Source: Naegleria gruberi (lineage: Eukaryota). From it: a stretch of 12,976 nucleotides of DNA. The position numbers and the translations under genes were made by a program. The DNA is taken from assembly GCA_000004985.1 (NCBI GenBank), contig GG738998.1; one strand, written 5' to 3'. Under the pieces are notes generated by a model that searched no databases, was not told the DNA's origin, and saw only the letters and a program-made list of their open reading frames with translations. Position 1 is the first letter of the stretch. Each line of letters starts with the position of its first letter. Below are positions 1,984 through 12,600 of the stretch, piece by piece.

Positions 1984-2181
1984 ATGCAAGCCTTGGTTAT
2001 TGAAGATTACTGTATCCAACCAAATTTTAAACTAGTTTCGGATTTTGAAAAACCATCCAAGTTGAAAGAAAATCAAGTTTTGGTCAAGTTGAAAGCAGCT
2101 TCGGTCAACCCAGTCGATTACAAAATGAGAAACGGAGCCACAAGGAAAGCAACTCCAGTCAAATTTCCAACGACGCTATTG
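1984..2181 (+). CDS. Exon 1 of MDR-superfamily (zinc-type ADH / quinone oxidoreductase-like) gene; GroES-like N-terminal segment
   Basis: MQALVIEDY...QVLVKLKAASVNPVDYKMRNG matches the N-terminal consensus of MDR quinone-oxidoreductase-like enzymes (eVLVkv.AaslNpvDyk.r.G). A GTAAAA donor at 2182 ends the exon in phase 0. Confidence 0.55.
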
Positions 2182-2258
2182 GTAAAATATTAGATCAAGA
2201 GGGTGAACATTCGTTTAACAATCAACCTTTGACTCCTCCATTCGAAACTTCCAAAAAG

Positions 2259-2930
2259 AAAGAGTTGAAAATTCTCATATTAGGTGCTTCTGGAGGAACT
2301 GGTTTGAGTGCTTGTTTGATAGCTAAACAATTCCTTTCCCTATATTTCCAAACAAAGGTTTATGCTGTTTGTTCTGAGAGAAATATTGACATTGTTACAA
2401 AAATGGGAGCAGATGTTGTCATTGACTATACAAAAACATCATCCAAACCTAGAATAGATGGTGAATCTGAAAATCTGAAGAGTATTTGTCAAACCATTAA
2501 GGAAGACCATGGAGATTCTTATGTGGATATTGTATTGGATTGTGTTGGTGGAACTGAAATGTATTATCGTGACGTTTGCAATAATTTTGAGTGTAAGAAA
2601 GCAAGAGATGGTGTTGCATTCACAACCATTTCACCAAATGTTCCATTCGAACCAAATATGGGACTTTCTTCTTTGATGAAAATTGGATATTTTGTAGTTT
2701 CTAATAAGATTAAGTCATTATCGAGTGCTTATCCATCCTTCCACTTTGTTTTCATGGATAAGAACGTAAAAGATATGAATTTACTGATGAATCATATTGT
2801 AATTTCGAATCAAGTTTACAATCAACTTCCACTGATGGAATTTGAATTTTCTGCTCAAGGATTAAACGATGCACATAAACAAATGGAATCTCAAAGAACA
2901 GTTGGTAAAATCGTTATCAAAATTCAATAA
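2259..2930 (+). CDS. Exon 2 of MDR-superfamily oxidoreductase; Rossmann-fold NAD(P)-binding domain through C-terminus
   Basis: KILILGASGGTGLSACLIAK...MGADVVIDY is the classic GxxGxxG Rossmann motif of MDR enzymes. The C-terminal TVGKIVIKI is also typical. Acceptor AAAAAG at 2257-2258 keeps phase 0, giving a 77-nt intron (2182-2258). Stop is TAA at 2928-2930, with AATAAA immediately downstream. Confidence 0.6.
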   Translation, partial: KELKILILGASGGTGLSACLIAKQFLSLYFQTKVYAVCSERNIDIVTKMGADVVIDYTKTSSKPRIDGESENLKSICQTIKEDHGDSYVDIVLDCVGGTEMYYRDVCNNFECKKARDGVAFTTISPNVPFEPNMGLSSLMKIGYFVVSNKIKSLSSAYPSFHFVFMDKNVKDMNLLMNHIVISNQVYNQLPLMEFEFSAQGLNDAHKQMESQRTVGKIVIKIQ

Positions 2931-3135
2931 ATAACATCTTTGTTCAAGTTGACTTTGTGTGTAATCTTCACAGTAACGGAATTGGATTATATTCCAAACA
3001 ACTATTTCCAAATCAAGAAGGAATTGTTAAATTCGAATAATTTCATTGGCTTGAAAGTTAAAAATTGGTAATTCCAATCATTCGTTTGTAAGTAAGCGAA
3101 GGCAAGTTAATCTTTCAGTAGTTTCCCATTATTGT
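2926..3135 (-). pseudogene. Degenerate fragment homologous to the 3' (kinase C-lobe) part of the ankyrin-kinase gene at about 4722-4910
   Basis: Roughly 80% nucleotide similarity with indels to 4722-4910. Shared strings include 'ttggattatattccaaacaactatttcc', 'cttcattggcttga', 'aattccaat.attcgtttgt', 'gcaagttaatctttca' and 'ttcaataaat'. The minus-strand reading gives ERLTCLRLLTNE then a stop, versus the intact ERLTCFLSTNELLELF in the real gene. Confidence 0.5.
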
Positions 3136-3197
3136 GAACACCAATGAACAAATTCACCTTTAATTTTAATGATGCTGAATAATTCTTACAAAAAAAA

Positions 3198-4171
3198 ATG
3201 GAAGCAACAAGTGCACAATTAAATAATCCTTTTAGTGTTTTTGTTTCATCAAATAATGAAGTTTTTATTGCTGACTATAACAATCAAAGCATTAGAAAAG
3301 TATTACAAAATGGAAATATTGTAACAATAGCTGGAAATGGAGATAAAGGATTTAGTGGTGATAATTGTCTAGCAACAAGTGCACAATTAAATAATCCTAT
3401 TGGTGTTTTTGTTTCATCAATGAAGTTTATATTTCTGACTATTGTAATCATGTAATTAGAAAGATTTTACAAAATGGAACTATTGTAACAATTGCTGGAA
3501 ATGGAAAACCTGGATTCGGTGGTGATAATGGCCTAGCAACAAATGCACAGTTGAATTACCCTAGAAATGTATATGTTTCATCAAATAATGAAGTTTATAT
3601 TGCTGACTTTTGTAATCAAAGAATTAGAAAAGTATTACAAAATGGAAATATTATAACAATAGCTGGAAATGGAACTAAAGGATTTAGTGGTGATAATGGT
3701 CCTGCAACAAATGCACAATTAAATGGTCCTGCAGGCGTTTTTGTTTCAAATAATGAAGTCTATATTGCTGACTATAGTAATCATGTAATTAGAAAGATTT
3801 CACAAAATGGAACTATTGTAACTATAGCTGGAAATGGAAAACCTGGATTCAGTGGTGATAATGGACTTGCAACAAATGCACAATTATATAATCCTTCAGG
3901 CACTTTTGTTTCATCAAATAATGAAGTTTATATTTCTGATTGTTTTAATCATGTAATTAGAAAGATTTCACAAAATGGAACTATTGTAACAATTGCTGGA
4001 AATGGGAAAGGAGGATTCAGTGGTGATAATGGTCCTGCAACAAATGCACAATTATATAGTCCTTTAGGTGTTTTTGTTTCCTCAGATAATGAAGTTTATA
4101 TATCTGACTGTTTTAATCATAGAATTAGAAAAGTATTACATAATGGAAATATTGTAACAATAGCTGGAAAT
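3198..4171 (+). CDS. NHL-repeat (six-bladed beta-propeller type) protein; at least 6 tandem 55-56 aa repeats; 1-nt frameshift near 3419-3421; 3' end lost in N-gap
   Basis: Repeated unit ATNAQLxxPxGVFVSSNNEVYIADxxNHxIRKIxQNGTIVTIAGNGxxGFSGDNG recurs every 165-168 bp. The Y/F-V-(A/S)-D ... I-R-K-I ... G-x-I-x-T-I-A-G pattern is the NHL-repeat signature. Start context is aaaaaaaaATG. A single-A deletion in 'tcatcaaatgaagtt' shifts frame 0 to frame 2 (ORFs 3198-3455 and 3551 onward). The ORF runs into the 450-N gap. Confidence 0.6.
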
Positions 4172-4621
4172 NNNNNNNNNNNNNNNNNNNNNNNNNNNNN
4201 NNNNNNNNNNNNNNNNNNNNNNNNNNNNNNNNNNNNNNNNNNNNNNNNNNNNNNNNNNNNNNNNNNNNNNNNNNNNNNNNNNNNNNNNNNNNNNNNNNNN
4301 NNNNNNNNNNNNNNNNNNNNNNNNNNNNNNNNNNNNNNNNNNNNNNNNNNNNNNNNNNNNNNNNNNNNNNNNNNNNNNNNNNNNNNNNNNNNNNNNNNNN
4401 NNNNNNNNNNNNNNNNNNNNNNNNNNNNNNNNNNNNNNNNNNNNNNNNNNNNNNNNNNNNNNNNNNNNNNNNNNNNNNNNNNNNNNNNNNNNNNNNNNNN
4501 NNNNNNNNNNNNNNNNNNNNNNNNNNNNNNNNNNNNNNNNNNNNNNNNNNNNNNNNNNNNNNNNNNNNNNNNNNNNNNNNNNNNNNNNNNNNNNNNNNNN
4601 NNNNNNNNNNNNNNNNNNNNN
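4172..4621. other. Assembly gap (450 N)
   Basis: Run of n characters. ORF-track proteins containing X-runs across it are artefacts. Confidence 0.99.
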
Positions 4622-5028
4622 AAAATTGATCTTTTTTCATTAGTTTGAATTGTTTGTAATGTTGGAACTAATTTCCTTTTTTTGGAAGGTTGTTCTTTTT
4701 GTTCATTTTGTAAAATGTTTGCTGTTAATTTCAATAAATGTTTTTGTAATTCCGCAAATGATGGTCTTGATTTTGGATTATATTCCAAACAACTATTTCC
4801 TATTCTAATAACTTCATTGGCTTGATTGAGTGTTAAACAAGGAAATAATTCCAATAATTCGTTTGTTGAGAGAAAGCAAGTTAATCTTTCATTATTTTCA
4901 ATGTGTTTTTGAGAAAATAATTCATACATTGTAACTCCAAAACTGTAAACATCCAATGCCGTGAGAAGATATTCTTTTTGGAAATCTTTCGGTTTGTGTT
5001 GCATTCGTTTTTCATAAATTTCAGGAGC
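4622..5028 (-). CDS. Ankyrin-repeat Ser/Thr protein kinase, exon 3 (kinase subdomains VIII-XI and C-terminal tail; 3' end in gap)
   Basis: After splicing the protein reads ...TIGGTFQYM|APEIYEKRMQHKP...DVYSFGVTMYELFS..., the canonical GT..YMAPE and D.WS.G subdomains. Acceptor TTCTAAAG ends at 5029-5030 on the minus strand. The ORF continues into N-gap 4172-4621. Confidence 0.7.
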
Positions 5029-5076
5029 CTTTAGAAAGTAAATTCTTAGATTGAATTAAATGAGACAAAACTTACC

Positions 5077-6050
5077 ATGTATTGAAAGGTTCCTCCAATG
5101 GTTGCTGAATAGGTTTCCACTTTATCAACAGAAACTGAAACATCAAAATCAGCAATTTTCACATCTTTTACCAATTTCAATCCATCAATTTCAATCATAT
5201 TAATTAAAATATTAGCAGGTTTAATATCATAATGAATAATCTTCCTTTCATGAAAATATTTCAAAGTTTCACAACATTTCATGCAAATAAATAAATATTG
5301 AATTAAAATTCCAAAATTATTCACTCCAAAATTAGTCAATTTTGTTGAACACTTATCCAATGAACTATTCATCAATTCCAAAAATAAATGCGTAGTTCCA
5401 GATTCGTCAATATAATGATACAATAATTTAACTGTTCCTTCACAAGTGTTGATTTTCTTCAAGATTTCCAATTCATTTTCTCCAGTATTATTCGAAACCT
5501 TCTCTAAAACTTCCAATCCATTCAATTTAACAATTGCCAGTGCATTCTTTTCAGTATTCGAAATGGGTTTTCTACAACTTCTATCAATCATTGGATTTTG
5601 TAATTCTTGAATTTGAATCATTGTTGGAATTACAATTGGACAACTGTTTGCTACTCGTTCTGCAAATGTTTTCACAACGTATTCTTCCCAACATTCAGGG
5701 ATTGCTTGTTTAAATGCAAGTATTTTGCTTACTGACATGGGATTTGGAATTAACTGATTGCTGACACTTTCTAATAATGATTTGAAAGCAGAAGAATATT
5801 CGAAATATTGACAAAATACATCTTGTGAATTTGACGGATGATTCCCAATGTTGAAATGAATTCCACCAGAACCATCAATTAGAAATCCATCGAAACAATT
5901 AGAATGATTGTAAAGTAATTTCGAATATAAATATTTGATCCAATATTTCCTTCGTAGTTCAGTGGAAATGTGGTTATTCTTCATTAACAGTGTTGCAGTT
6001 TCGTATTGTTCGTTTCTAATAGCTACTTCTAATAGAGTTTCTCCTTCTCG
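5077..6050 (-). CDS. Ankyrin-repeat Ser/Thr protein kinase, exon 2 (ankyrin repeat end and kinase N-lobe through the activation segment)
   Basis: Contains AIVKL (beta3 Lys), ENELEILKKI (alphaC Glu), HYDIKPANILI (catalytic loop; HYD instead of HRD), KIADFD (DFG replaced by DFD) and GTFQYM. The GTAAGT donor is reverse-complement at 5071-5076, giving a 48-nt intron (5029-5076). The exon begins after a CCAG acceptor (6051-6054 reverse-complement). Confidence 0.75.
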
Positions 6051-6147
6051 CTGGTCATTAGTTTAGAATTCTGCTTTCGAATAAAACTTACATTTCTCTT
6101 TAATACAAAACGATGATTAATTATTATGATTAACAATAATTACATAC

Positions 6148-6453
6148 AACATTAAAATCAATATTCGGAACCTGTGTCAATAATTCTATAATTTCGTGTG
6201 CGCTTTCTTTGACAGCTGTCATTAATATTGTTTCTCCCAGTACCGAATTATTATTGATGATCAAATGAAGTTTCAGACTTTTCAAAGTTTCCAAATCCTG
6301 ATCACAAATGGCAGCTCTAGCAGTATAAATAGAGTGAAATATTTCATCCGAAACATTATTGGAAAGTGTAGGTGAGTTAGCAGTTGGTGATGAGCTTATA
6401 TTGAAAAGTGAAGGAAGTGCAGAGGTTGGTGATGAAGTCCAATTATTGTACAT
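6148..6453 (-). CDS. Ankyrin-repeat Ser/Thr protein kinase, exon 1 (N-terminal S/T/N-rich region and ankyrin repeats)
   Basis: Start context aaaaaaaaATG (reverse-complement of 6453-6461). ...GETILMTAVKESAHEIIELLTQVPNIDFNV joins REGETLLEVAIRNEQYETATLLMKNNH in exon 2 (ankyrin consensus G.T.L..A....n.e....LL). A GTATGT donor at 6147-6142 and the CCAG acceptor give a 97-nt phase-0 intron (6051-6147). The unspliced ORF hits a stop at 6130. Confidence 0.65.
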
Positions 6454-7117
6454 TTTTTTTGTACTTGGCCTTCAAAAAAGTTCAGAAATAAATTCAATAT
6501 TATTCTAGTTCGAAACGTTTCGAATGTACATCTTCTCCTTGAGCATTCTTAAATAATTGAATCAATGTTAAAAAACTTTTCGAAAAGACATCATCTACTA
6601 ATTTTATTATTTAAACAATGAATGGTGGAATGTGAGCAAAGCAATTTAATGTAGATTGAAATAAACACACCAAGAATAAAACAAATTGAAAATTTATTGA
6701 AAATTGTTGTGTATCAAGTTTGAAAATCAGCAAGATTTCCTACCTTGAAATTTACCATGTTGGAAAATTCACTGTTAGTGATGGTGTGATGATGATGACC
6801 ATTAAGATATTGGCCTTAATGATCGGAAGCGAACTTGCTGATGATAAAAGATATGATGAAGTGAAAATTCCACAACTCTATGAATACAAAGTGGAACAAT
6901 TCCAACTCTCTTGATGGTGATATTAGACATCCCTACTAATGATACTATGTTGTTGAAATTCAATCATCATGATGAAAATATATGGTGAATGATGAATACA
7001 CCAACAAGGTGAAAACTCACCAAAATTAAAAAGGTAATGAATTTATTAGACAGGAATTTATAGGTCATAAAGACAAACGTTACTTTCCAGCTCACAAAAA
7101 TCGTCAAAAGTCAACCT

Positions 7118-7540: not shown

Positions 7541-7590
7541 NNNNNNNNNNNNNNNNNNNNNNNNNNNNNNNNNNNNNNNNNNNNNNNNNN
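7541..7590. other. Assembly gap (50 N, conventional unknown-size gap)
   Basis: Run of n characters immediately after repeat copy A. Likely a repeat-induced contig break. Confidence 0.99.
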
Positions 7591-7937
7591 TTTAATAATT
7601 TACTGTATGGATTATTTTCCAAATTTTTCGAATGTTTTGGATTATTTCTAATAAGATACATGGCAATCCAATTAATCGGATCGATCTTTGAGTAGATAGT
7701 ACTCTTTAATTTTTCATATTCTTGTTCCTCTTCCGATTTCGGATCAACTGTTGAATACTCCTTTAATAAGGATTGAAAAGCAGGAATCAGCACTCCCAAA
7801 ATATTTTCCTCCAAATAAAACGACAGCTCATCGCCACCCTCCCGAGCCAATCTAATGGTTGTTTCATCCTCTCCGAGCGATTCCTCAACATGAAAATTGT
7901 ATTCGTGATGAAGAGGCGAAGCAAAGTGCTTTTTCAT
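7591..7937 (-). CDS. Dpy-30/RIIa-like dimerisation-docking domain protein (3' end in gap)
   Basis: ATG at 7937 in an aaaaaaATG context. SFYLEENILGVLIPAFQSLLKE plus DPINWIAMYLIRNNP resemble the two helices of the Dpy-30 motif (YL...V.P.L..GL..L ... DPI.FLA.YLL.N), with about 25 aa inserted between them. The ORF is open into the gap at 7590. Confidence 0.5.
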
Positions 7938-8078: not shown

Positions 8079-8501
8079 CCCGCTCATTTTTGTTGACGCA
8101 TGTTTTGACGATTTTATAGTCATGAATGACGCCTTTGTTTATGCTTGTTAAGGTGTCATTGGGACGGTGTTGTGGACGTCAAAATGACGTTTTTTTTCGT
8201 CATTTTGACGGTGTCAATTTGAGAGTCATTAAGACGTCAAAAAAAGCGTCCTCAATGACGTCTCAAAAAGTGTCTCCAATGACGTTGCAGAATGATTATT
8301 AATTTTTGATAAATTGAAATTTTATTGAACTATTCATAATTCTTACAAGTTGGAAATCTTTCATCTTGAACCATTTCACACTGAGTGAAACTCAATGCTG
8401 TGAAAGATTCACACCGTGTGAATTAATATTGTAAAAGATTTCACACCATCAAAGATGACAAGGAAATTGACAAGAGTTTCTTATAAAAACGTGAAATAAA
8501 A
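8079..8501 (+). repeat. Copy B of transposon left arm (terminus plus TGACG subterminal array plus TTTCACAC motif cluster)
   Basis: Identical to 7118-7499. Contains the palindromic core AAAATGACG-T8-CGTCATTTT (8185-8210) and six GTGAAA/TTTCAC(AC) motifs in both orientations at 8375-8450. Confidence 0.85.
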
Positions 8502-8665
8502 ATTTGAATTGATATGTCTTGTAAATGAATTGAAATGATGTAATATAATTGATAACTGATACGACTTACTAGTATGTTGAGGTATTTTTTTTGAAAAATA
8601 TTTTAAACTGGTTGCAAAAATAGAAAGTGTTTATTTTAGAGATGAAGCCAAATATGGAAAGACAT

Positions 8666-10840
8666 TTAATATAATGTAAAGGCCATTTTGTGAATTGGTT
8701 TGAAGTGAAAAGAGCCATTAATTTGCTGGCATATTGCTGGTATGAAATCTTGTTTGATAGTGTCTTGTGAGACGGTGATTGTTGTGCCATTAACAGCATG
8801 TCGAATCTCAATTTGTGAATAATTTGGAGAAAATGAATTGACTTGATAAATTTCTTTAGAGGGAGTGTGTAACAAGTAATCTCTTTTGCTATTGATTATA
8901 TAATTACCACAGACACATTCTAGTTTACGATTGGGAGGTTTCAAGTTCAATAATTGTACCAAATTTACCATATCAAAGAATAGAATTGAATATCTTAAAG
9001 AATTGGCACATTTGAAGGGTTTTGAGAGAATGTTATTCATTGCCTCAAAAATAAATGCGTTATTGCACCACAATGGACCATATAGACGGCAGTTCATTAC
9101 CATTTCAGCTGCTATGTGAAAATTTGGAGAGCAAAAATTAGCATCCTTCTTTTGAAAAAAGTACAGAACTGAGTTTAGCTGTTTCTGCAATAATGGAAGA
9201 TCTTCTAATTGAAATGAGTCCATTAGCTTATCAATAATTCTCACATATTGAATAATGTGTTGAACTATTTCTTGAATTTCACTATAGCTCGGAATTTCCT
9301 CAAATAATTCGAGATAATAATGACACAAAATGTAAACTTCAATGGATTTCAGGTGATTGATATTTTTTGCAATGGATCTTGGGTGCTTGTGAAAAAAGGA
9401 GGGAAACTTCTGTTTTAAATAAATGACATCAAATTCTTTCCAATATCGTTCATCAATTAAATTGAGAAATTTCACCAAAATACCTTCATAATTGTAATGC
9501 ATGTTATCATATGAACAGAGACATGTTGGATTAGGATTGAATGGTTGTAATAGGATTGGAGAAACACTATCCATTCCGGGTGGTAGATTTGAGTTTGGAA
9601 AATTGTTAATGAGAGAAATCTCATTGTGATATTCTCTGTATTTGAATTTTTCAAAAACCTCAATGAGTTCTGATTTTCCATTCAATACTACTAATCTTGT
9701 TCGAAACTCCAATGGATAAACTTTGTGAGAACCAGATGTATCTTCACCCTTAGTGTTACACAAGTGACAAAAATAAAATCCTTGGCGTTTAAAGAATAAA
9801 ATCTCTGATCTTGCAGGAAGGTCAGCAATTACTCGTTCAATTATCATTTCCAAATTAAGGTTTTTTTGATTTGAATTTAGACAATTCAGATCATTCATTA
9901 TTACTTTGAGTCCAATTTCAATATCTATCTTATCAGGTTTCCTTGGTAAAATGGCCCATAGAAAATTATTGGTAGATTTCTTTCGATCAGAAGGACTCAT
10001 TTCATTAAACTGTACAATGAAATTATAGAAATTATTCAAGCTCTTTTTAAATGGTGAAACTCCATCACCATTGAGAGTACCAGTGAGTCTTTTTGTTGAA
10101 ATGGTTTCATCAATCCAAGGTTGGTGAATTTTTCTAAATATTTCACCTCCTTGACGATCAGAAATTGTTGAGCTATCATTATGACCTTGGTAATTGAGTG
10201 TTTCATTAATAAAGTTTGGTTCAAAAGCTATTCTTTCTTGGAAAGCATATTCTAAAGGGCGCCAAAATAAATAATCATCTTTTTGCCAAATCTTTTCACA
10301 AGAACAATGAGTGTGTTGATTATCATGTTGAAAATCTTTACATTCTCTGCAATAGTGTATCTTTTTGGTCTTGCAATTCAAGTTATAATGTCCATAAAAT
10401 CCATTCAATGTTAGCATCTGCGAGAAATCTTCTTGGGGTGCCTCTTTAACCAAATTAGCACATTTTCCAATTAACTGGAGCATACTTTCAAGATTACTTT
10501 CTGATAATTGAGCTGAGGTTGTAAATTTCAAAATCTCGTTCATTATACGCTTTATAGGAAGAGAGAGATTATTCCAATGGTGAAGATTAAAATCAACTTG
10601 AGTAGAAGACCATTCAGATTCGCTTGTTAGTGTGTCTTCTTCTCTAATATCTTGAATTGGATCTATGTCATCTGTTGTATAACTTGACTCATCATCCTCA
10701 TCACTAATTTCTAATCTTTCTTCAATGTCATCACTCATTTTGTCATTACTGTTTGAAAAGTTGGTGGAATCTTGGTTATATCGAATATTGGCTAAGTATA
10801 TTGAGTTCTTGTTGGGCATTTCTTTTTGTTTAAGAAACAT
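8666..10840 (-). CDS. Transposase, Transposase_21 (Tnp2/En-Spm TnpD/KDZ) family, 724 aa
   Basis: GTLNGDGVSPF...FNEMSPSDRKK...FLWAILPRKPDKIDIEIGLKVIMNDLNCL aligns by eye to the Transposase_21 core (lSlStDGfnPF ... YNLPP..R.K...fl..LIPGPk.P.d.IDVYL.PLieEL..LW). The N-terminal Cys/His cluster IHYCRECKDFQHDNQHTHCSCEKIW resembles the transposase-associated zinc domain. The C-terminal LYGPLWCNNAFIFEAMNNIL resembles the GPV..RWMYPFERYM motif (DUF4218) of CACTA transposases. Single uninterrupted ORF. The reverse-complement region around 8629-8634 ('tttatt') supplies an AATAAA near the 3' end. Confidence 0.8.
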   Translation of the reverse strand: MFLKQKEMPNKNSIYLANIRYNQDSTNFSNSNDKMSDDIEERLEISDEDDESSYTTDDIDPIQDIREEDTLTSESEWSSTQVDFNLHHWNNLSLPIKRIMNEILKFTTSAQLSESNLESMLQLIGKCANLVKEAPQEDFSQMLTLNGFYGHYNLNCKTKKIHYCRECKDFQHDNQHTHCSCEKIWQKDDYLFWRPLEYAFQERIAFEPNFINETLNYQGHNDSSTISDRQGGEIFRKIHQPWIDETISTKRLTGTLNGDGVSPFKKSLNNFYNFIVQFNEMSPSDRKKSTNNFLWAILPRKPDKIDIEIGLKVIMNDLNCLNSNQKNLNLEMIIERVIADLPARSEILFFKRQGFYFCHLCNTKGEDTSGSHKVYPLEFRTRLVVLNGKSELIEVFEKFKYREYHNEISLINNFPNSNLPPGMDSVSPILLQPFNPNPTCLCSYDNMHYNYEGILVKFLNLIDERYWKEFDVIYLKQKFPSFFHKHPRSIAKNINHLKSIEVYILCHYYLELFEEIPSYSEIQEIVQHIIQYVRIIDKLMDSFQLEDLPLLQKQLNSVLYFFQKKDANFCSPNFHIAAEMVMNCRLYGPLWCNNAFIFEAMNNILSKPFKCANSLRYSILFFDMVNLVQLLNLKPPNRKLECVCGNYIINSKRDYLLHTPSKEIYQVNSFSPNYSQIEIRHAVNGTTITVSQDTIKQDFIPAICQQINGSFHFKPIHKMAFTLY

Positions 10841-10872
10841 GATGGATCTTGATCAAGGTAAACTTTAAAAAA

Positions 10873-12303
10873 ATGGCTCCAAAGAAAACCAAGAAAGCTA
10901 AAGAGCGAGCTATTTCTATCAAATGGAAAGTTCAAAAAAGTAATACCAAAACTTCTTCTAGTACTGATGAAAATTCATCCATTCTCACAAATTTGAAAGG
11001 AAGTGCCTATAGTGCCTATCAAACCTATTTCGCAAAGGAAGAGGCAGAAAAGTCTTCTCTTGTTAAAGAATTTGTTCAAATAATTAATTATTGGTGTATT
11101 TCAAGAGAGAGAGATAGAAAGTTAGTTAATTTTCAAAGTGAATCCTTAGCTAATTTGGTCCAATTTTTGAAAACTGATACATTTTACCAAGAATTTAAAA
11201 TAGATATCAAAGATTTCACTCTGAATCTGTTGGCAACAAAGGATCTTGCAACAAAGAATCATAGATTAGAAGTTGATTCAGTCCAAGAACCAAAATTAAA
11301 TGATTTCGTAAACATATTAGAAATGGATGATACAGATGTCAATTACTATATCATTCCAGCAATTGGTAAAGTAGTGAACGAAGATCCATTCCAAGTTTCA
11401 ATCGAACACCACAATCACATCCACTATGAGAAAAAGTATTCCAAAAAAACTCCAATCTCAGTATCGAAGGACATGACGAGCGTAATAGAAGCCTATGAGG
11501 AGACAGAGCCAAACTTTTCAACCATGCTACCTAGTAATAGAATTTCTGTTAACATTACCCCATCTAAAAGAAAGTCAAAAGCAAAGAAACCGTCTTGTAA
11601 TGAAATTTCAGATAATAACTCAGAACCAACCAATAAGATGTCAACTAGAAAAAACAAATCTAAAACAGCTGCTCCAAAGAGGAAGAATCAATCTGATGAA
11701 GATGAATCAAGTACTGATACAGATAATGATTCTGAACCAAGCAAGAAAAAACAATTTAAACCATCTTCCAGTAAACAACTAGTGAAGACAGTGAAGAAGA
11801 CCATGTCAGTTCATGATTCAGATAGTGATGAATCCACCACTGAAGATTCAGAAAATGGTACTAGTGACTCCACAGAATCTGTCTATTTTCAAGTTCGTCA
11901 CGTTAATGGAAAACGGGAATATGTGATTGTTCCAGAGCATGTCGATTACATCTTTGATTTGATAGATAAGGACAAAGCTTTTCCAGAGTTCATCAATGCC
12001 ATTATCCAATGTGAAAAGGTATTAACTGACCTCACAAAAAGGTTTGCTCATCTATTTTCAGGGCTTGCATTCAACACTACCGTAAATGGTATAACTTATT
12101 CAATTCCTCCAGACATTATCAAAATGCTTATTGGTAATGTGACTCAAAAACAGTGCTTGGAATTGTTAGCACATCATCACTTCAAGAAACCTATAGGAGA
12201 ACTCACAACTGATCAAAGAACAGTATGTAGAAAGTTCTTTGAAGCAAGGGGATGGGATAAAGAAAGTGTTCGGAAGGCAATCAATAGTTTGATCAAAGAA
12301 TAA
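10873..12303 (+). CDS. Transposon ORF2: 476-aa lysine/serine/acidic-rich protein with a structured C-terminal domain of about 150 aa; function unknown
   Basis: The ORF track starts at a TTG (10849). The first ATG is 10873, in a ctttaaaaaaATG context matching other genes here, and is only 32 bp from the transposase ATG (10840) on the other strand. The basic N-terminus (MAPKKTKKAKER) and poly-acidic/Ser tracts (SDEDESSTDTDNDSE, SVHDSDSDESTTEDSENGTSDSTES) suggest a nuclear, possibly DNA/chromatin-binding protein. No known motif in the C-terminal VYFQVRHVNGKREYVIVPEHVDYIFDLI... region. Confidence 0.6.
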   Translation: MAPKKTKKAKERAISIKWKVQKSNTKTSSSTDENSSILTNLKGSAYSAYQTYFAKEEAEKSSLVKEFVQIINYWCISRERDRKLVNFQSESLANLVQFLKTDTFYQEFKIDIKDFTLNLLATKDLATKNHRLEVDSVQEPKLNDFVNILEMDDTDVNYYIIPAIGKVVNEDPFQVSIEHHNHIHYEKKYSKKTPISVSKDMTSVIEAYEETEPNFSTMLPSNRISVNITPSKRKSKAKKPSCNEISDNNSEPTNKMSTRKNKSKTAAPKRKNQSDEDESSTDTDNDSEPSKKKQFKPSSSKQLVKTVKKTMSVHDSDSDESTTEDSENGTSDSTESVYFQVRHVNGKREYVIVPEHVDYIFDLIDKDKAFPEFINAIIQCEKVLTDLTKRFAHLFSGLAFNTTVNGITYSIPPDIIKMLIGNVTQKQCLELLAHHHFKKPIGELTTDQRTVCRKFFEARGWDKESVRKAINSLIKE

Positions 12304-12520
12304 TTTCTAGACATGATGTTAAGCTTGATGAACAAGTCAAGCTTGTGAAATTTGTATTTTTTTTTTAAAATTTTCAAAAATATTCACAAGTCTGAAATAC
12401 GTCACCTCCTCCTTCACTGATTTTCATCATCAAAACAACACAAAACAAACAACAACAAATAAACAACACATTACAACATCAAGTAGAACACAACAGAATA
12501 TCGATAATTAACTTTGGAGT

Positions 12521-12600
12521 AACTTTATGCAAAATCGTCAGCGATGACGTCAAAAAAAGCGTCAATCCACCATCAGGAATGACGAAATAAAATGAGCGGG
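12521..12600 (-). repeat. Transposon right arm (inverted terminus AAAATGAGCGGG plus TGACG/CGTCA subterminal repeats)
   Basis: Reverse-complement of 12589-12600 is CCCGCTCATTTT. Upstream motifs are aatCGTCAgc, gaTGACGTCaaaaaaaGCGTCaat and gaaTGACGaaat. The subterminal sequence is related to, but diverged from, the left arm, as is typical for CACTA-like elements whose two arms differ. Confidence 0.7.

Follow-up and report, generated by a model that had tools for sequence, protein, structure and literature searches.

A kinase gene and an NHL-repeat gene that run toward each other across an assembly gap, with a decayed piece of the kinase gene on the far side of the NHL gene, raise the question of whether kinase and NHL propeller once belonged together, as a single gene or as a duplicated functional pair, or are independent neighbours. 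The locus lies in a 12,976-nucleotide stretch of Naegleria gruberi contig GG738998.1 (the window), where an ankyrin-kinase gene on the minus strand and an NHL gene on the plus strand flank a run of 450 N (Table 1). We consider it probable that the locus consists of two independent convergent genes and an orphaned, non-functional scrap of the 3' coding region of the kinase gene. The scrap is most likely ordinary debris of a local duplication, and not evidence of a kinase-NHL sensor module.

When the kinase region (4622-6500) was searched against the window with blastn, the only further kinase copy was the 144 nucleotides (nt) at 2982-3125, which match 4773-4899 in the same orientation and correspond to codons 471-512 (42 codons) of the kinase C-lobe (150 columns, 70.7% identity including 29 gap columns, E = 1.3e-17). 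Smith-Waterman alignment of this fragment with the kinase gave a score of 103, compared with 21.5 ± 2.8 and a maximum of 35 for 500 shuffled sequences, and the next-best segment of the window scored only 28. In a codon-strand alignment, fragment and parent were identical at 110 of 119 ungapped columns (92.4%) and 72.4% identical across all 152 columns, having been separated by 9 substitutions and by 8 insertion or deletion (indel) events totalling 33 nt. As the copy is diverged rather than identical, it does not represent a duplication introduced by the assembly. The original prediction had proposed about 80% similarity between 2926-3135 and 4722-4910; the similarity is real and the figure is fair in light of the two identity values, but only 144 of those 210 bases are supported.

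The fragment no longer encodes a kinase segment. Its tblastn matches cover kinase residues 471-503 and 503-512, and its translation reads ERLTCLRLLTNE, a stop, LELPIFNFQANEIIRI, a second stop and then GNSCLEYNP in another frame, where the kinase reads ERLTCFLSTNELLELFPCLTLNQANEVIRIGNSCLEYNP. The first stop is a TGA at 3080-3078 whose counterpart in the kinase is TTA, so that the minus-strand orientation and premature stop ascribed to this copy at the outset were both borne out, with a second stop and a frameshift besides. The fragment is therefore disabled by 2 stops, at least 1 frameshift and the 8 indels. No minus-strand open reading frame (ORF) of 50 or more amino acids (aa) in the ORF list overlaps it, and Rfam and tRNA scans of the window, fragment included, returned nothing. 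Because it matches a parent gene, carries disabling lesions and lacks an ORF, 2982-3125 is a duplicated pseudogene fragment.

A sequence that has lost its coding capacity could still act as RNA, and the fragment has features that would suit this: on the plus strand it is antisense to the mRNA of the kinase, it shares perfect runs of 28 and 24 nt with the kinase, and it begins 52 nt past the stop codon of the upstream oxidoreductase-like gene. Transcription by read-through from that gene or from the NHL promoter might then yield an antisense transcript or small interfering RNA that regulates the ankyrin-kinase. We regard this as very improbable, since 8 indels in 150 columns resemble neutral decay, Rfam gave no match, and the upstream gene itself looks dead. 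A 26-mer common to both kinase copies had no match in a metagenome scan. Under our preferred reading, the scrap would encode nothing and would at most have a passive role ahead of the NHL gene, as spacer or promoter DNA.

The fragment sits in a 267-nt spacer between the stop codon of the oxidoreductase-like gene (2928-2930) and the ATG of the NHL gene (3198), and its limits are narrower than first proposed. On the kinase 5' side, the right flank at 3126-3135 is not significant, as 44 of 500 shuffled sequences equalled its score. On the other side, bases 2926-2930 close the ORF of the upstream gene and lie outside the kinase homology; we read the alignment left of 2931 as running into the conserved C-terminus of that gene (VGKIVIKIQ, then the stop), an AT-rich chance similarity. 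In between, 2935-2968 aligned locally with 4628-4663 with a score of 35 against 22.5 ± 3.7 for shuffled sequences, 2 of 500 of which reached that score. This block may extend the copy toward the kinase tail, which would imply a deletion of ~96 nt in the copy. The homology ends abruptly at 3125/4899, in the middle of an exon and at neither a domain nor an intron boundary, which argues for breakage at the DNA level and not for exon shuffling. Both kinase copies had also been described as pointing at the NHL gene. The intact kinase does converge on it; the fragment, being on the minus strand and to the left of the NHL gene, has its 3' end facing the upstream gene and away from the NHL gene.

The gene from which the fragment derives looks intact, with three exons, canonical GT-AG introns and collinearity with its best database match, N. 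gruberi XP_002680160 (631 aa, P0001 herein; 59% identity over 522 aa), over query residues 26-540. The second match, P0002, is 35% identical, and none approaches 100%. Pfam placed a Pkinase domain (PF00069) at residues 270-524, against profile positions 23-260 of 263 (104.2 bits, cut-off 31.7), and Ank_2 at residues 48-128 (36.2 bits, cut-off 27.3). The catalytic motifs that can be read from the sequence include the VAIK-type lysine in LEKV, HYDIKPAN, DFD and MAPE. The GxGxxG glycine-rich loop is absent from the window kinase (ISNTEKNALAIV) and likewise from P0001; without this loop, and with DFD for DFG, the two may form an atypical or weakly active subfamily. The more distant paralogue P0002 retains GKGGYG.

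Comparison with P0001 also bears on the missing end of the kinase and on the parentage of the fragment. P0001 consists of ankyrin repeats and a kinase domain followed by a 92-aa low-complexity tail, without an NHL domain. The window kinase shows 22 residues beyond the last position that aligns with P0001, and exon 3 contains no stop codon before the gap; by analogy with P0001, up to ~70 further kinase codons may lie within it. Where the window kinase and P0001 differ, the fragment agrees with the former, carrying ERLTC, TNE, LEL, QANE and LEYNP in place of the ERLES, AKE, LET, QARK and LEADP of P0001. Since these are derived residues of the window kinase, its template was that gene, or a twin of very recent origin, and the copying followed the split of the two paralogues.

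The NHL gene is recognisable as a regular array, with units that start at 3213, 3381, 3545, 3713, 3878 and 4046, the sixth being interrupted by the gap. Its frame-corrected translation scored 105.8 bits for NHL (cut-off 20) and 124.8 bits for TEN_NHL (cut-off 27.1) in Pfam, so that all three domain calls of the original prediction stand above their Pfam cut-offs (Pkinase 104 bits, Ank_2 36 bits, NHL 106 bits). A 4-nt deletion in blade 2 shifts the frame, the ORF from the ATG at 3198 ends at 3455, and no in-frame ATG follows the frameshift. As assembled, the gene therefore does not provide a complete six-blade propeller in one intact ORF: it has 5.75 blades and a frameshift. No stop codons occur elsewhere in the blades. 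The ratio of nonsynonymous to synonymous divergence between blades (dN/dS) ranges from 0.3 to 1.2 with a median of ~0.5, a range that does not decide whether the gene is alive. Blade 4 carries an in-frame 3-nt deletion at the spot that matches the blade 2 deletion, and the AAT-AAT site in the blades seems indel-prone.

The closest eukaryotic relative of the NHL gene is another N. gruberi protein, XP_002670610 (P0066 herein), which is NHL-only and 75% identical. The two share the same start register (MSSLVTRAQLFNP in P0066, MEATSAQLNNP in the window), and no signal peptide is visible in the latter N-terminus as read from the sequence. Metagenomic YvrE-like proteins and Streptomyces RICIN-NHL proteins matched the whole query at 44-56% identity. 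Apart from one N. gruberi paralogue, the best-scoring relatives among the 120 matches listed are bacterial; this resemblance may reflect either consensus-like repeats or a bacterial origin of the Naegleria family.

As had been seen in the sequence from the beginning, the NHL and kinase ORFs both run open into the 450-N gap at 4172-4621, and they do so on opposite strands. The gap probably arises from the NHL array itself, since near-identical tandem blades of 168 nt (80-90% nucleotide identity between blades) would be unresolvable for an assembler. It probably contains the rest of blade 6, a short spacer and the remaining codons of the kinase tail. Open ORFs at both edges of a gap, in a region whose poor assembly is evident from two gaps and an exact 400-nt repeat, could also be expected if kinase and NHL array were one PknD-like gene broken by a misoriented contig, as the original prediction had allowed. 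We find this extremely improbable. The two ORFs run on opposite strands; were the right-hand contig inverted, the NHL array would adjoin the ATG and N-terminus of the kinase rather than its 3' end. Each gene has its own N-terminus, that of the kinase aligning with the N-terminus of the stand-alone P0001 and the NHL ORF having an ATG in register with the stand-alone P0066. Furthermore, P0001 ends in its low-complexity tail without NHL, and the visible part of the kinase tail shows no transmembrane segment. With opposite strands and separate N-termini, it is very unlikely, as judged from sequence, that kinase and NHL array form one gene.

We then weighed whether the locus arose when a functional kinase-NHL pair was duplicated, in tandem or inverted, one kinase copy having since been reduced to the fragment. 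The NHL gene is indeed bracketed by two kinase sequences in direct orientation, the fragment and the intact gene, and N. gruberi has paralogous families of the kinase and of the NHL gene. However, the window contains a single NHL array, with no second NHL copy and none to the right of the kinase, and what is duplicated within it is only the 144-nt kinase piece, not a kinase-NHL pair. Copies of a tandem unit would continue alike, whereas the homology here breaks off immediately at 3125/4899. The kinase and the NHL gene have their closest paralogues on two different scaffolds (665 kb and 236 kb), and each of these paralogues contains only its own domain type. Among the homologues listed, NHL (PF01436) occurred in 0 of 51 kinase matches, and neither PF00069 nor PF07714 occurred in any of the 120 NHL matches. 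Duplication of a pair is thus unlikely. What survives of the duplicated module that had been proposed is a local duplication of kinase 3' coding DNA; the module itself is not supported, with 144 nt copied within the window and the closest paralogues on separate scaffolds.

How the scrap came to be separated from its parent can be narrowed further. The NHL array is flanked by scrap and parent in direct orientation, and the sequence to the right of each of these repeats differs at once, which excludes a simple tandem duplication of a larger unit. The NHL-bearing DNA may have entered the kinase locus within its 3' end, the same event duplicating the target; alternatively, the kinase 3' end may first have undergone a short tandem duplication that NHL DNA split later. 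The single-event insertion with target duplication is favoured, the window itself not discriminating between the two. In either case, the copy that remained attached to the body of the kinase would have been kept under selection, while the copy stranded beside the oxidoreductase-like gene would have decayed neutrally, accumulating substitutions and numerous small indels.

At a distance of 5 kb there is a transposon-like element bounded by 12-nt terminal inverted repeats and containing a Transposase_21-like ORF, and the patch is short (144 nt) with its template only 1.8 kb distant. These features might point instead to a fragment carried in by a gene-capturing transposon or laid down as templated filler during double-strand-break repair, in either case unconnected with the history of the NHL gene. 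The region 2900-4700 is not flanked by the terminal-repeat motif of this element (CCCGCTCATTTT), and the inverted repeats around it do not exceed chance level. The possible second collinear block, moreover, fits a longer duplicated segment better than a filler patch, and we judge such an origin to be quite unlikely. Transposon capture was rejected because the motif of the nearby element flanks neither the fragment nor the NHL gene. The 17-nt inverted repeats between NHL blades and kinase tail, such as 3460-3476 with 4704-4720, were also set aside, being about as frequent as expected by chance for the base composition.

Several points weigh against our preferred reading of two independent genes and a stranded scrap. 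The order of events is not reconstructable from one window, and the 450-N gap hides the junction. Because the upstream stop codon lies just 52 nt from the fragment, the target-duplication model needs a later deletion of at least 100 nt there. The NHL frameshift, finally, could be an assembly error instead of a real lesion.

Table 1. Coordinates of the kinase copies, the two convergent genes and other features of the window
Feature	Position	Strand	Description or evidence
Degenerate kinase C-lobe copy (pseudo-fragment)	2982..3125	minus	blastn; Smith-Waterman against shuffles; codon-strand alignment; translations; tblastn
Parent segment of the kinase copy, ENNERLTCFLSTNELLELFPCLTLNQANEVIRIGNSCLEYNP	4773..4899	minus	blastn and codon-strand alignment
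Possible further kinase remnant	2935..2968	minus	Collinear with kinase tail 4628-4663; weak evidence, local alignment
Kinase exon 1	6148..6453	minus	ATG at 6453; Ser/Thr-rich N-terminus; first ankyrin repeat
Kinase intron 1	6051..6147	minus	97 nt; GTATGT...AG
Kinase exon 2	5076..6050	minus	Second ankyrin repeat; family-specific middle region; N-lobe to activation loop (HYDIKPAN, DFD)
Kinase intron 2	5029..5075	minus	47 nt; GTAAGT...AG; AG acceptor at 5030-5029
Kinase exon 3	4622..5028	minus	APE motif to end of C-lobe and 42-aa hydrophilic tail
NHL-repeat array	3198..4171	plus	5.75 blades of 56 aa (168 nt), open into gap; Pfam, unit table, ORF list, paralogue
4-nt deletion in NHL blade 2	3417..3424	plus	TCATCAATGAAG in place of TCATCAAATAATGAAG; unit 2 is 164 nt instead of 168 nt
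Scaffold gap, 450 N	4172..4621	.	Sequence; hides 3' ends of NHL and kinase genes
Quinone-oxidoreductase/zinc-alcohol dehydrogenase-like gene	1984..2930	plus	Pfam; alignment to PDB chain 5a3j_A
Small ORF running into 50-N gap	7594-7937	minus	Weak Dpy-30 motif match, E = 4.5e-4, below cut-off
Transposon-like unit	8079-12600	termini 8079 plus, 12600 minus	Perfect 12-nt terminal inverted repeats CCCGCTCATTTT; GACG-rich subterminal repeats
724-aa ORF of transposon-like unit	8666-10840	minus	Weak Transposase_21 match, E = 0.005, below cut-off
484-aa ORF of transposon-like unit	10849-12303	plus	No family

The remainder of the window gives the picture of a young, rearranged, partly decayed and poorly assembled region. 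It is AT-rich, with ~32% G+C, and contains a second run of N at 7541-7590 (50 N). The oxidoreductase-like gene switches frame near 2170-2180, where KFP is in one frame and DAIGKILD in another, and it lacks ~55 residues of the catalytic domain relative to PDB 5a3j_A; a pseudogene or assembly errors are the probable explanation. An identical second copy of the left end of the transposon-like unit runs from 7118 to ~7520, beside the 50-N gap, and is either a second element or an assembly artefact.

At the left of the window, the plus-strand ORF at 892-1746 is identical at 283 of 286 residues to NAEGRDRAFT_82316, which is on a 40,673-bp scaffold, differing by one substitution (T to A) and a 2-aa indel in the signal-peptide-like N-terminus. 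Near-identity to this annotated protein confirms the window as N. gruberi DNA; since the identity is 99% and not 100%, the window represents a different allele, haplotype or assembly version of N. gruberi. The orthologues of this ORF in N. fowleri and Willaertia magna are 60% and 56% identical, respectively. When all window proteins were searched with tblastn, no other window gene was found within 6-10 kb of either orthologue. The neighbourhood is therefore specific to N. gruberi, and the ancestral gene order is unrecoverable from these two species.

Taken together, the observation of a degenerate kinase copy beside convergent kinase and NHL genes was confirmed, whereas the interpretation first placed on it is mostly not supported. 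In a 5.8-billion-cluster database, the best protein matches were the 59% and 75% identical paralogues of the kinase and the NHL gene, and none was near-identical. Both the kinase (4622-6453) and the NHL gene (3198-4171) appear to be unannotated in N. gruberi, perhaps owing to the gap and the frameshift. The window thereby adds an apparently unannotated third member to a small N. gruberi-specific ankyrin-kinase family. The kinase relic, the NHL paralogue (frameshifted as assembled) and the new family member document local rearrangement and are of little import beyond annotation. For the latter, the fragment at 2982-3125 is not an exon, the kinase and NHL genes are not to be merged across the gap, and the NHL and oxidoreductase-like models are best treated as possible pseudogenes.

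The known system that the locus most readily calls to mind is that of the PknD-type sensor kinases of Mycobacterium tuberculosis, in which a Ser/Thr kinase is joined through a transmembrane helix to an extracellular six-bladed NHL beta-propeller. In the window, too, NHL blades occur close to a Ser/Thr kinase domain, no more than 2 kb from it. In PknD, however, the defining feature is that these domains form one polypeptide, whereas in the window they belong to separate genes on opposite strands. The window kinase also differs in its N-terminal ankyrin repeats and its hydrophilic tail (QNEQKEQPSKKRKLVPTLQTIQTNEKRSI), which, read from the sequence up to the gap, contains no transmembrane segment, and the closest homologues of the two genes never combine kinase and NHL among the matches listed. 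Since there is no single polypeptide with a transmembrane segment between kinase and propeller, the analogy to PknD that had been drawn for this locus fails. A literature search combining 'Naegleria gruberi' and 'NHL' found nothing relevant.

Each part of the locus has closer counterparts. The kinase belongs with the N. gruberi ankyrin-kinases P0001 and P0002, and has in common with P0001 the ankyrin repeats, the middle region specific to the family, a degenerate glycine loop and the motifs HYDIKPAN and DFD; it differs in having no matching model in the protein database (59% at best) and in a C-terminus hidden in the gap. The NHL array has 56-aa blades in common with P0066 and with bacterial YvrE-like and teneurin-type propellers, and its start register is that of P0066, but it carries the frameshifting 4-nt deletion and is interrupted by the gap. 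The scrap resembles duplicated (non-processed) pseudogene fragments in that it lies near its parent, is partial, breaks off mid-exon, has acquired stops and frameshifts and holds no ORF. It departs from the usual members of that class in being very short (42 codons) and in bracketing an unrelated gene together with its parent as direct repeats, an arrangement which suggests target duplication and not the remains of a whole-gene duplicate.

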